DNA from: an uncultured delta proteobacterium
GTDB taxonomy: Bacteria > Desulfobacterota > Binatia > UBA9968
Direction: 5' to 3'
Length of the DNA stretch: 64,000 bases
Assembly (NCBI GenBank): GCA_963728565.1
Contig: CAVSLC010000009.1
Location: forward strand, 1 to 64,000
Shown: one piece after another, positions 24,164 through 29,696 of the stretch
Position numbering within the stretch: position 1 is the stretch's first letter
Layout: each line of letters opens with the position of its first letter
Position numbers and translations under genes: made by a program
The notes under the pieces: model-generated
The model's input: the letters and a program-made list of their open reading frames with translations, nothing else
The model's database searches: none
What the model was told of the DNA's origin: nothing

Positions 24164-25090
24164 ATGGGCAAACTAAAAGGCGATTTGGATCTACACAAAC
24201 TCGAAGTCTTCTTCTGGGTAGCAGAGCTCAAGAGCTTTTCGGAAGCGGCACAACGGCTATCGTTGAAGCAACCCACAGTCAGCGCGCATATTCAGGAATT
24301 GGAAAAAACGCTTGGCGGTAAGTTGTTCTATCGGATTCCCGGGAAAGTTACTCTGACCACATTAGGCATACTGCTGCTCGATCAGGCTAAGGATCTGCTG
24401 GCGTTCAAAAGAGAAACGGTGGCTAAGATCGAGCGCTTCCACGGTAGCCTGAGCGGCGAGCTTTGGGTCGGCGGCAGCAACATTCCCGGTGAATATCTAC
24501 TGCCGCAAAGGCTTGCGGCGTTCATCCAAAAGCATCCTCGGGTAAAGCCCATCCTGCGAATCGGCGACTCGGCAGGCATCGTTGACGAGGTGCTCGACGG
24601 CAAAGTCGAAGTTGGGTTCGTCGGCTTTAAGAACGCGGAGAATAGACTATCCTTCGAGAAGATCTGGCAGGACGAAATGGTACTCACGGTGCCGAGCGGA
24701 CATCCATGGGCCCGCCGAAAATCCGTTGAGCTGTCAGATTTGCGGTCGGAACAGTTCATCGCGCGTGAACGCGGCTCGGGAACCTTGGATTCTTTTCGTC
24801 ACCTTATTAGCAAGGGCAGACGCTCAGCCGACGACCTGCTCAGCATAGCAATGGAGCTTGGAAGCACCGCGGCGGTAAAAGAGGCCCTGATCTCGGGGTT
24901 CGGTATCTCGATTTTGTCCCGCGTTTCAGTGGAGCGTGAATTGGCCGAAGGCCTGCTAGCGGAAATCCCAGTCCGCCAATTCAAGATGATCCGCGACTTT
25001 TACGAGGTTTGCTACAAAGGCCGGCCGTTATCACCGGTTGCTCAAGCTTTCCGCGAGTTTGTAAAAGCAGGTAATTCCTCGAAGCGCTAA
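24164..25090 (+). CDS. LysR-family regulator, CysL-like (resembles the selenium-metabolism-associated LysR group)
   Basis: HTH SFSEAAQRLSLKQPTVSAHI; GGSNIPGEYLLP; RERGSGT; ELGSTAAVKEA. Confidence 0.85.
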   Translation: MGKLKGDLDLHKLEVFFWVAELKSFSEAAQRLSLKQPTVSAHIQELEKTLGGKLFYRIPGKVTLTTLGILLLDQAKDLLAFKRETVAKIERFHGSLSGELWVGGSNIPGEYLLPQRLAAFIQKHPRVKPILRIGDSAGIVDEVLDGKVEVGFVGFKNAENRLSFEKIWQDEMVLTVPSGHPWARRKSVELSDLRSEQFIARERGSGTLDSFRHLISKGRRSADDLLSIAMELGSTAAVKEALISGFGISILSRVSVERELAEGLLAEIPVRQFKMIRDFYEVCYKGRPLSPVAQAFREFVKAGNSSKR

Positions 25091-25252
25091 GGCAATGAGC
25101 GCCGTGGGATAATGTAAATATCACGAGTGCGCTTCGCCAGCTTCGCTATCCCGCCGATCATTTGGCACACAGAATTATCGCTGGTCGTATTGACCAAGCC
25201 TCTATAGATGATAGAGAAAAGGAATAGCTTATATCTTGAGTAGGAGGTTTCC

Positions 25253-25720
25253 ATGGGTAATTTAGAAGGGCAGCAGGCGCCCGCATTTACATTGGAAGGC
25301 AGCGATGGAAAACGACATTCTCTGTCCGATTACCGCGGTAAAAGCGTCGTTCTTTATTTCTATCCGAAGGATGACACGCCGGGATGCACCAAGGAAGCCT
25401 GCGGCTTTCGTGATTCCATCGACTCGGTGACGAATTCCAACGCCGTCGTCTTGGGCGTGAGCAAAGATGGAATCGAATCGCACAATCAATTTATCGATAA
25501 ATACAACTTGCCGTTTACTCTTCTTTCCGATCCCGATACCAAAGTCATGCAGGCGTACGGCGCTTGGGGTGAGAGGAAAAATATGGAGGGCAAGACCGTC
25601 GAAGGCGCTATTCGCTCGACGGTGGTGATCGGGCCTGACGGCAGGGTACTACGACAATGGGCGCCGGTTGCTAACGCCGAGGAGCATCCTCGTGAAGTGT
25701 TGCAGTTTCTGCAGAAGTGA
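25253..25720 (+). CDS. bcp: Bcp/PrxQ peroxiredoxin (Cys form)
   Basis: [26 protein letters not shown]. Confidence 0.92.
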   Translation: MGNLEGQQAPAFTLEGSDGKRHSLSDYRGKSVVLYFYPKDDTPGCTKEACGFRDSIDSVTNSNAVVLGVSKDGIESHNQFIDKYNLPFTLLSDPDTKVMQAYGAWGERKNMEGKTVEGAIRSTVVIGPDGRVLRQWAPVANAEEHPREVLQFLQK

Positions 25721-28003: not shown

Positions 28004-28483
28004 ATGAAAAGTTTGGAGGGACAGAAAGCCCCGGCGTTCAGTCTGGAAGGGCACGACGGCAAGACGCACTCGCTTGAGGATTATCGCGGCCAGAAGGTGG
28101 TCTTATTCTTCTATCCCAAGGACAGTACTCCGGGCTGAACCAAGGAAGCTTGCGGGTTCCGCGAGCTAAGTACGGAAATGAAAAGGCTGGGAGCGATAGT
28201 TCTGGGTATCAGCAGAGACAGCATTGCTTCTCATAAAAAGTTTGCCGAGAAGTTCAATCTGCCGTTCGTGCTGTTGTCCGATCCTAAGGCAGACGTCATG
28301 AAAAAGTACCAGGCCTTCGGCAAGAAGATGATGTACGGAAAAACCGTGGAGGGCACGATCCGCTCAACATTGGTAATCGGCTCAACGGCCAACGTGATCA
28401 AACACTGGCCGACCGTCAAAAAAGCTGATCAGCACCCACAAGAGGTGCTGGCTTTTCTAAGGGAGCGATCGGGCAAAGATTGA
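28004..28483 (+). CDS. bcp: Bcp/PrxQ peroxiredoxin, probable selenoprotein (Sec at TGA 28136-28138, codon 45)
   Basis: [19 protein letters not shown] aligns codon-for-codon with the Cys paralog at 25253; same frame continues to 28483; SECIS-like hairpin. Confidence 0.88.
28147..28167 (+). promoter_or_regulatory. Candidate bacterial SECIS element
   Basis: AGCTTGCGG-GTT-CCGCGAGCT: 9-bp stem (one G-U) with GU in the apical loop, 18 nt 3' of the UGA; not formed at the same place in the Cys paralog. Confidence 0.7.
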
Positions 28484-28597
28484 TCGAAACAGTACCAAAG
28501 GCTCAGAACAATCCGGTCATTATCCGGTTGTTTTTCCAGAAAAACCATTGTAGGGATTACCAATCAGATCCATCGATAAAACCAATTGGGGGAGTTC

Positions 28598-29696
28598 ATG
28601 AACCGGAGAGCATTTTTAAAATCGAGCCTGACCGTTTCCGCGGGACTGGCGCTGGGGGCTACGCCCAGGTTGAATCATTTTGCCAGTGCTGACGATCCGA
28701 CCAAGTGGCGAAGCTTCGAGGTGATTACCAAAGTCGATGTCATCAAACCCGTGGGCGCCACTCGCGTGTGGCTTCCCGTTCCACTCACCAAGCAGACGGA
28801 CTATTTCAAACGTGAGGATGATAGCTGGACCGGTAACTTCAAGTCGGCTCGAATTGTTCAGTACGATCGATATGGAACAGGGATGTTATTTGCCGAATGG
28901 ACGGCCGGCGAAACCGCGCCTTCATTGGAATTGAAGAGCCGCTTCATGACCCGCGACCGGCAAGTGAATCTTAAGCGCGAAACAAAATGTTGGGGTCAAA
29001 GAAGATAAGGCCGTGCTGGAGTATTTCCGTAAGCCGTCGAAGCTTATACGAACCGATGGTATAGTCGGTACCACTTCACGTGGCATTACCATGGGTATGA
29101 AGAGCGACGTCGACAAGGCGCGCGCGATTTACGACTGGATCGTCGATAATACTTTCCGGGATCCCAAGGTGAAAGGTTGTGGTATCGGCGATATCTCGAC
29201 GATGCTTCAAACCGGCTACCTCGGCGGTAAGTGCGCCGACCTAAACGCGCTGTATGTGGGGTTGGCCCGCGCCGCCGGCCTGCCGGCCCGGGATGTTTAC
29301 GGAATCCGCTGCGCTAACTCATCAGAGTTCAAAAGTCTCGGAAAGGCGGACGATATCACCCGCGCCCAGCATTGCCGGGCTGAGGTCTTTTTGACTGGGC
29401 AGGGCTGGGTACCCGTGGATCCAGCCGACGTGCGCAAGGTGGTTCTGGAAGAGAACCTTCCCGGGCAGCCGCTCCCGCTCGATGATCCCAAGGTCAAGAA
29501 GGCGCGAGCCAAACTGTTTGGCGCATGGGAAATGAACTGGTTGGCTTATAACTACGCTCATGACGTTAAGTTGCCCAACTCTAACGGACCTGAACTTGGC
29601 TTTCTTATGTACCCTCAGGTAGAGGAGGCCAACGGTCGGCGCGATAGCCTCGATCCGGATAATTTCAAATACACCATCACGGCTAAAGAGATTTGA
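28598..29696 (+). CDS. Tat-exported transglutaminase-like protein; frameshift in A-run near 28980
   Basis: MNRRAFLK twin-arginine signal; GGKCADLNAL, QHCRAE, WVPVDPAD (Cys-His-Asp triad). Confidence 0.85.

Follow-up and report, generated by a model that had tools for sequence, protein, structure and literature searches.

A LysR-linked gene cluster with an Egt1-type sulfoxide synthase in a Candidatus Binatia genome: a possible decayed copy of a selenium-shortage regulon

What links a LysR regulator of a selenium-linked subfamily with two related Bcp peroxiredoxins, one using cysteine (Cys) and one selenocysteine (Sec), and with an enzyme of the ergothioneine type? We addressed this question for positions 24164-29696 of a 64,000-nucleotide stretch of DNA (the window), where six co-oriented genes, present as reading frames or remnants of them, lie on the plus strand. 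The window belongs to contig C9 of the 4.5-Mb genome of a soil bacterium (G000; completeness 80.55%), whose closest named relatives are Candidatus Binatia; other G and L codes denote related genomes and loci, and the order-level set comprised 61 genomes. A first-pass annotation had proposed a selenium-responsive antioxidant unit that swaps Cys and Sec peroxidases and couples them to a thio- or seleno-histidine made without SenB and SenC. The reading that we favour, with somewhat better than even confidence, starts from a likely selenium-shortage regulon in one order of Candidatus Binatia, of which this cluster would be a derived and partly decayed copy. As long as selenium is in good supply, the LysR protein of the regulon would hold down a predicted selenium importer and stand-ins based on sulfur.

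The LysR regulator and a candidate operator across the order

The regulator belongs to the LysR_Se (HrsM-like) subfamily by its score against the hidden Markov model NF040786 (LysR_Sec_metab; 268.8 bits, cut-off 250), which bears out the annotation's guess of a selenium-linked LysR, and its genome has the SelD and Sec decoding that characterize hosts of this subfamily. Orthologues were found in 54 of the 61 genomes searched, and scores above the NF040786 cut-off in 15 of 19 genomes of the order and 1 of 132 outside it. Throughout the order, the divergent ygfZ-like and Rieske ferredoxin genes are fixed neighbours of lysR, and the gene order downstream of it is highly variable across relatives.

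By aligning the DNA behind lysR, we found a 26-base box, ATAG-N7-C(T/G)AT-TTGACAt-ATAG, around a -35 element. The exact three-box pattern is present in 36 of the 61 genomes (39 matches, as compared to 5 in the reversed control), and almost all genomes have a single exact copy, next to lysR or the importer; when one mismatch was allowed, a fuller pattern occurred in 11 of 18 other genomes of the order and in none of 132 outside it. A matrix scan of loci from the 61 genomes, in which a copy was counted at 22 bits or more and the matrix had been trained on 31 of the sites later scored, gave 56 copies in 49 genomes. The first gene behind these copies encodes a TIGR04553-like binding protein of an ATP-binding cassette (ABC) importer in 40 cases, a Cys-Bcp in 7, an Egt1-type synthase in 5, and a truncated EgtB-II and a transglutaminase in one case each, with 2 unassigned. 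No Sec gene is first behind any of the 56 boxes, and the genes for Sec-peroxiredoxin and Sec-Bcp have no box. Across several lineages, Cys-Bcp, the synthase, DUF427, a PhnD-fold protein lacking a signal peptide and a twin-arginine translocation (Tat) transglutaminase are placed behind box copies, and the best box score at 72 synthase loci outside Binatia was 6.4 bits. One importer binding protein, scanned whole, scored 335 bits against TIGR04553 (cut-off 250). This putative selenate importer and DUF427 have been reported among the neighbours of sulfoxide/selenoxide synthases, at 3.1% and 5.7% (PMC13674229, Table 1); neither is in the window, whose PhnD-like gene is a different protein without a signal peptide.

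A natural loss of the regulator bears on what recognizes the box. In G038 and G042 (L239 and L240), lysR has been deleted between ygfZ and the TIGR04553 importer; the importer and the TTGACA -35 are kept, and the ATAG/CTAT boxes have decayed to scores of 1.8 and -0.5 bits. The remaining 17 of the 19 genomes of their genus have both LysR and box. The loss of the boxes together with lysR, with the -35 retained, links the boxes to the LysR protein and TTGACA to the promoter, a pattern that is consistent with repression. We infer that the box is the operator of this LysR protein and straddles the -35, a position from which the protein would act by repression.

In the archaeal counterpart, HrsM of Methanococcus, Cys isogenes are repressed at adequate selenium and putative transporters rise on depletion (PMC5322559, PMC11097638). 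The two systems share the LysR subfamily by model score, targets that include Cys or sulfur counterparts of selenium-using functions together with putative transporters, and a box over the promoter. The Binatia regulon differs in being bacterial, in having as targets a peroxiredoxin, a small-molecule antioxidant synthase and an ABC importer rather than hydrogenases, in having a predicted binding site, and in the loss of its box in the window's subclade. By analogy, the Binatia LysR would occupy the box at adequate selenium and leave it on shortage, so that import and the sulfur stand-ins are turned on; the signal may be selenophosphate, as proposed for HrsM, a fall of which would lift repression. 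The ancestral target is a TIGR04553-type ABC importer; of the stand-ins, Cys-Bcp would replace the Sec-peroxiredoxins and ergothioneine would replace selenoneine. Binding, signal, direction of control, importer substrate and enzyme product are all predicted here.

The wide variation of gene order behind lysR would also suit a simpler account, in which the importer is the only LysR target, and a rearrangement hot spot behind lysR took up bcp, the synthase and the transglutaminase, leaving an ordinary antioxidant neighbourhood in the window. That the window's subclade keeps these genes without a box, one of them dead in G000, agrees with this account. However, five genomes (G010, G019, G025, G027 and that of L068) have separate boxes, one for the importer and one for bcp or the synthase. 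In a sixth (G037), a second box, part of a four-box palindromic operator, stands at a distant locus (L229:3991-4742) before a frameshifted, truncated type II EgtB, which represents an ergothioneine synthase type independent of the Egt1-type enzyme. We therefore consider chance insertion distinctly unlikely. At the same G037 locus, a NikR-like gene and a metal ABC transporter lie downstream of the truncated EgtB-II.

A further possibility keeps the operator and the regulon and changes the signal: the LysR protein would sense sulfur or another oxyanion in the manner of CysL, the importer would transport an oxyanion of sulfur or phosphorus, and expression of the Cys-using genes would follow sulfur supply. 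LysR_Se regulators are thought to descend from sulfur regulators (PMC5322559), the same importer binding protein scored 230.6 against the general phosphate/phosphite/phosphonate model (cut-off 112), and the sel and sen genes of G000 carry no box. Against this, none of the 54 assigned boxes has a cys or ssu gene as its nearest downstream gene, the LysR protein passes NF040786, and the targets are Cys/sulfur counterparts of Sec-Bcp and SenA, the latter reached twice through unrelated EgtB types. We regard a sulfur signal as unlikely, though less so than the other alternatives. Beside these importers, G015 (L177:4599-5639) has behind the operator a permease with weak matches to the SO_0444 and SaoE families in place of the ABC importer, a possible alternative selenium transporter.

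An Egt1-type synthase in a genome with the selenoneine pathway

The synthase of the window has 452 residues and a structure model of high confidence (predicted local distance difference test score, pLDDT, 91.6). It shows the iron ligands His56, His152 and His156, the catalytic Tyr401, the Cys-binding residues Arg47, Tyr53 and Asp88, and an Asn434-Trp435-Tyr436 segment. At 11 scored active-site positions (RYHDHHYYNWY) it is identical to 42 of 43 named fungal EgtD fusions, which were homologues from a search that did not include Neurospora crassa Egt1, and to none of 17 SenA-type proteins. Its profile scores were 355 bits for the fungal set as compared to 213 bits for SenA.

The Egt1-type assignment drawn from the sequence alone is supported, and the scores lie below the EgtB, SenA and OvoA cut-offs. 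The score against the EgtB model TIGR03440 was 223.4 (cut-off 360), and neither the EgtB-I motif (xSDH--RR..NWDR) nor the EgtB-II motif (xSHHYYRR..NFF) is present. The enzyme belongs to the same fold family as the SenA of the SenA-SenB-SenC pathway, but it scored 223.7 against the SenA model NF041186 (cut-off 420) and lacks the xNEH and NF(Y/F)R residues of the SenA motif xNEH--HRHxHYYN(F/Y)(F/Y)R. Against the OvoA model TIGR04344 it scored 264.6 (cut-off 400), with NWY in place of (Y/F)AF and without the methyltransferase domain of OvoA. It does lack the RxxR motif (R85-G-I-D88), as described for type III enzymes in PMC12071650, although it is not fused to an EgtD methyltransferase, the other mark of that type: it stands alone, and EgtD is encoded on contig C13.

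The EgtB-IV motif RxYH--DxHxHYxNWFx (PMC11030361) fits at all scored positions except that Tyr436 replaces Phe; many bacterial relatives of the synthase have NWF, would fall in EgtB-IV under the published motif rule and may already have been assigned to it. In terms of the composite motifs given there, the enzyme combines the Cys-binding Arg/Tyr/Asp of the OvoA-like branch, three iron-binding His, the catalytic Tyr and the hercynine-type NW. The Cys-binding residues are shared with both EgtB-IV and OvoA, and NW also with EgtB-IV, which in the alignment has no CHxH segment. PMC11030361 describes type III as 'of fungal origin' and does not include it, and the uncharacterized motifs A-F listed there do not match the window synthase. 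The closest solved structures by sequence are of EgtB-IV (PDB 8vih and 8vig), and also of OvoA (8khq). With fungal Egt1 (type III, as in the Egt1/Egt2 route of N. crassa) the synthase shares the 11-position motif, a GIDPDVD..CHxH segment, the lack of RxxR and the clade in the tree described below; it differs in being bacterial and stand-alone, with EgtD on another contig.

A search among longer proteins returned 296 matches, and among the 120 listed nearly all were EgtD fusions, mostly of fungi and protists. In a tree of 69 rows, the Binatia synthases fell beside or within a group (support 93/92) that contains all the eukaryotic EgtD fusions, among bacterial stand-alone enzymes, and SenA and EgtB-I formed a separate group (100/100). 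The direction of transfer is not settled by this tree, because its rows were hand-picked from the matches, its root serves for drawing only, and true EgtB-IV and OvoA were left out. Some of the homologues deserve mention in their own right. Among P0123, P0244, P0246 and P0128-P0138, EgtD-synthase fusions of unassigned origin branch beside the eukaryotic Egt1 group, and several protist proteins also have a pyridoxal phosphate (PLP) aminotransferase domain, which suggests a three-enzyme ergothioneine fusion. Eight homologues with 35-42% identity (P0259, P0263, P0265, P0296, P0300, P0309, P0314 and P0315) have a strongly altered active site and possibly perform other chemistry.

From its motifs and its place in the tree, the protein is most likely a stand-alone ergothioneine sulfoxide synthase. 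Selenosugar or SenA-type chemistry was considered and rejected by model score, motif and tree. As judged from motif, tree and gene neighbours, the enzyme would join Cys to hercynine at C2 with iron and oxygen, giving hercynylcysteine sulfoxide; hercynine would come from the EgtD of the sen locus on C13, and a general PLP-dependent C-S lyase would then release ergothioneine. Pathways with such synthases borrow a general C-S lyase (PMC13674229). Gene neighbourhoods were surveyed in the best 80 of 579 bacterial synthase loci, several of them with short flanks. There, egtD lies in the fetched flank at 66 of the 80 loci, that is, at 66 of the 72 without a Binatia lysR and at none of the 8 with one; senB, selD, selA and selB were found at none of the 80.

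In G000, egtD, senA and senB lie together on C13, all above their cut-offs (SenA 495.6, cut-off 420; SenB 398.1, cut-off 300; EgtD 297.1, cut-off 290.9), and with SelD on C28 the SenA-SenB-SenC/SelD selenoneine pathway is present. SenB exceeds its cut-off in 54 of the 61 genomes, and 13 of the 14 genomes with the synthase have SenB. Ergothioneine would accordingly be made alongside selenoneine, and the synthase would be the sulfur counterpart of the SenA/SenB route within the same cell; both the sen pathway and Egt1 chemistry are already known (PMC10903977, PMC11237966, PMC12071650), and ergothioneine and selenoneine clusters are reported to co-occur more often than expected (PMC11030361). The annotation's alternative, a selenium-responsive unit in G000 that alternates between Cys- and Sec-Bcp and uses free selenocysteine to form selenoneine, with no need of SenB and SenC, draws on the selenium-type LysR, on the Cys- and Sec-Bcp genes side by side, and on fungal Egt1, which gives small amounts of selenoneine from selenocysteine (PMC10903977). 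The same work reports that this fungal route yields very little selenoneine; SenA, SenB and SelD are all in the genome, no operator was found in G000, and all four Cys/Sec combinations of the Bcp pair occur among relatives. We consider this alternative highly improbable. The ABC system of the OpuA/OpuBC type at the sen locus (Table 1) may import ergothioneine or hercynine.

Peroxiredoxins and the other genes of the window

The Cys codon of bcp1, the in-frame UGA of bcp2 and the second Sec-peroxiredoxin across the divergent ygfZ-Rieske pair had been recognized in the first-pass annotation, and all three withstood comparison. Genes for selA, selB and a Sec-containing selD are clustered on C28, and the tRNA-Sec gene (selC) lies on C25. 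The folding signal of the hairpin behind the bcp2 UGA, taken by itself, is weak (z -2.5 on 42 nucleotides, -0.8 on 65 nucleotides). The comparative signal is stronger: the octamer GGGTTCCG occurs 3' of the Sec codon in 10 of 10 Sec-bcp genes of the same family as compared to 1 of 21 Cys-bcp genes, and two further Sec genes of the family carry it. It is absent from all 5 Sec-bcp genes of a sister family, whose hairpin differs. RNAalifold found no common structure over 10 bcp UGA regions; hairpin registers differ between clades, and the claim of a selenocysteine insertion sequence (SECIS) therefore rests on single folds together with the octamer count. The upstream Sec-peroxiredoxin has TGA in 27 of 27 scored orthologues. 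Because the Sec machinery is present, the hairpin comes with the octamer and the TGA is conserved, both selenoproteins are very likely real.

The Sec-peroxiredoxins of COG1225 (Bcp) with a TxxU motif are a known selenoprotein family (PMC9312934), to which bcp2 belongs by the UGA at its peroxidatic site, the downstream hairpin and the Sec machinery of its host. The Binatia genes differ from this family in their repeated Cys/Sec switching in two neighbouring paralogues. In a sister family (L158-L167), the second Cys of the Sec-Bcp motif is often Arg (UTKEAR) and the hairpin sequence is different.

The proposed swap of a Cys and a Sec isoform did not survive the comparison. The two proteins are 60% identical, and in the tree they are separate paralogue lineages, bcp1 forming its own clade (100/100). 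Where bcp1 lies downstream of lysR, it encodes Cys (7 of 7: G000, G001, G003, G004, G005, G006 and G030), and where it lies upstream, Sec (7 of 7 loci: G016, G021, G023, G034, L061, L068 and L077). The second paralogue encodes Sec in G000, G004, G005, G006 and L061, and Cys in G003, G019, G020, G029, G030, L068 and L077. All four combinations of bcp1 and bcp2 (Cys/Sec, Cys/Cys, Sec/Cys and Sec/Sec) thus exist, and the pair is therefore no fixed swap.

Gene order was only partly conserved. Related arrangements are found in relatives, but the full order of six genes with Cys-bcp1 and Sec-bcp2 is confined to G000 and G004: G005 keeps only a remnant of the phnD-like gene, the contig of G006 stops before the transglutaminase, and G030 has the same order with two Cys genes. 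The GTG start that overlaps the bcp1 stop, assigned at first to the synthase, is in frame only in G000; the conserved start is the ATG at 25735, 14 bases past the stop (5 of 5 relatives aligned). Translational coupling of bcp1 and the synthase through this GTG was rejected, as the overlap is not conserved. RNA-library contigs of relatives (88-99% alike) span most of the region, including the bcp1-synthase junction; we took them as evidence neither of a single transcript nor of its level.

The supposed PhnD-like solute-binding protein turned out to be encoded by a pseudogene in G000. Relative to the intact genes of G004 and G006, it has a +1 shift near 27163, a -1 shift at 27314, an in-frame TAA at 27381-27383 and further deletions; contigs of nearly identical DNA have other indels in this region (among the 12 of 30 indel rows listed). 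The intact orthologues start without a signal peptide and have no ABC partners, that of G004 scored 54.9 against TIGR04553 (cut-off 250) and is not the TIGR04553 binding protein, and an Atlas search with the signal-less protein returned general PhnD-family clusters only. For the transglutaminase, the Tat signal and the PF01841 match stand, while the reading frame is interrupted by a one-base insertion near 28970. Contigs of closely similar strains lack this insertion, and the frameshift is for that reason an assembly error or a strain-level lesion.

Elsewhere in the window, thiI is split over two frames on the minus strand (18574-19056 and 17883-18626, together 17883-19056), possibly by a frameshift or an assembly error, and positions 30220-37654 hold a cytochrome c' gene and, after it, molybdo-hydroxylase genes of the CoxM/L/S-like type in two sets on the minus strand.

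Table 1. Positions of the features in the window and of the sen locus of the same genome
Feature	Position	Strand	Characteristics
Sec-peroxiredoxin	22001..22468	+	UGA 22139-22141; hairpin ~22158-22188 (z -3.07); conserved neighbour outside the LysR-boxed unit
Rieske ferredoxin gene, divergent	22537-22842	-	Order-wide fixed neighbour of lysR
ygfZ-like gene, divergent	22967-24076	-	Order-wide fixed neighbour of lysR
LysR of selenium-linked subfamily (LysR_Se / HrsM-like)	24164..25090	+	NF040786
Promoter-like element travelling with bcp1 (TTGACC ... TG-A-TAGAGA)	25189..25217	+	Upstream alignments; putative promoter function
bcp1, Cys-type Bcp/PrxQ peroxiredoxin	25253..25720	+	PF00578, NF053650; TGC at peroxidatic site 25385-25387
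Stand-alone Egt1-type (type III-like) non-heme-iron sulfoxide synthase, 452 aa	25735..27093	+	DinB_2 and FGE domains
Pseudogene of signal-less PhnD-fold protein	27153..27941	+	Intact in G004, G006, G030
bcp2, Sec-type Bcp, TxxU motif	28004..28483	+	TGA (UGA) at peroxidatic site 28136-28138
SECIS-like hairpin of bcp2, 9 bp, GUU loop	28147..28167	+	Fold and octamer
Tat-signal (RRAFLK) transglutaminase-like gene, Cys/His/Asp motifs	28598..29696	+	PF01841
sen locus	L051:2299-12258 (C13)		OpuA/OpuBC-type ABC transporter, egtD, FGE-domain protein, beta-N-acetylglucosaminidase-like gene directly before senA-senB, AmpG-like transporter

Box loss in the window's lineage and implications

Several observations weigh against a selenium-shortage regulon, above all in the genome of the window. 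Between lysR and bcp1, the best matrix scores were -4.1 (plus strand) and 11.8 (minus strand), as compared to at least 22 for real boxes, and the exact box pattern has no match in G000. A genome-wide scan of G000 with a first matrix gave 21 matches above 13 bits (39 and 37 in shuffled sequence), and with a second matrix 4 above 14 bits, the best of them inside a gene; selA-selB-selD, selC and the sen locus showed no box. As the box is absent from G000, the regulatory claim rests on its relatives. The synthase is optional, being present in 14 of the 61 genomes, and is being lost in some: it has stop codons inside the match in G005 (L010/L039), and a short remnant lies behind the operator in G010 (L050). 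Neither EgtE nor EgtC was above cut-off in G000, and the omission of EgtB-IV and OvoA from the tree belongs on the same side of the balance. The counts are not independent, since G038 and G042 represent one loss, and the link between position and codon of bcp1 may reflect one or two events. For both NF040786 and TIGR04553, gene neighbourhoods are the source of the selenium label, and according to PMC11097638 a transporter dedicated to selenium is not known.

Finally, the box equals the OxyR consensus, with the ATAG-N7-CTAT spacing of OxyR sites. The box might thus be a peroxide-stress operator, with this LysR in place of OxyR and the cluster as an oxidative-stress unit. Peroxiredoxins and an antioxidant synthase are among the targets, and no OxyR-like motif was found in G000. 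On the other hand, the LysR protein scored 92.2 against the OxyR model NF008361 (cut-off 329), 46 orthologues have no conserved Cys, the exact box is a single copy next to lysR or the importer in almost all genomes, and the main target is that importer, with the Sec-Prx and Sec-Bcp genes left without a box. A peroxide operator appears very unlikely on this evidence.

In returning to the selenium-shortage regulon, we note that the absence of the box is a feature of the window's subclade. G000, G001, G003, G004, G005 and G006 have no box in the locus and no TIGR04553 protein above cut-off, whereas G002 and G007, of the same genus as G000, have both; in G000 no DUF427 match was found in the window and no importer above cut-off in the genome, which is 80.55% complete. 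A genome-wide regulon in G000 was rejected, the scans being no better than shuffles, and a scan for consensus promoters and terminators stayed at chance level (6 as compared to 6.9, and 11 as compared to 10.5). The cluster of the window is best read as a decayed or uncoupled copy of the regulon, with about a fifth of the genome missing, because there is no box at the locus, the scans are at shuffle level and only bcp1's own promoter-like element precedes bcp1. In this lineage, bcp1 and the synthase would probably be driven by that promoter and no longer respond to the LysR protein. Viewed across the order, the locus has the properties of a LysR regulon with a link to selenium; a working six-gene unit in G000, with one dead gene and no operator found, is not supported. 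The window cluster is a weaker example than those of its relatives, since its box is absent.

Much of what is combined here is already known, namely LysR_Se/HrsM, TIGR04553, Sec-Bcp, Egt1 chemistry and the sen pathway. Added are the type III assignment, the count of targets, the lysR-loss control, the independent EgtB-II case and the box loss in this lineage. In the literature searched, which mostly did not cover subscription journals, neither the box nor a LysR_Se regulon of bacteria had been described, and bacterial type III/Egt1 enzymes that stand alone were likewise not found. We tentatively propose, at rather less than even confidence, a bacterial selenium-shortage regulon with a defined operator that would carry the principle of HrsM beyond protein isoforms to small molecules. 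A single LysR_Se would control a dedicated importer of selenium and, in two independent cases, the sulfur-based ergothioneine synthase that takes the place of selenoneine. Stand-alone type III enzymes would form a broad radiation in bacteria (Acidobacteriota, Binatia, Planctomycetota, Myxococcota and others), to which this synthase would belong and inside which the Egt1 of fungi and protists would have originated.

The sensing of selenium by bacteria and the existence of a dedicated transporter are open questions (PMC11097638). A 26-base box tied to one LysR_Se, together with a natural regulator-loss control and a named importer, makes both testable. The regulon also offers a possible reason for the co-occurrence of ergothioneine and selenoneine clusters: one compound may substitute for the other. 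Bacterial Egt1-type enzymes of the stand-alone kind would represent simple ergothioneine synthases that use Cys, and they would bear on the origin of fungal Egt1.

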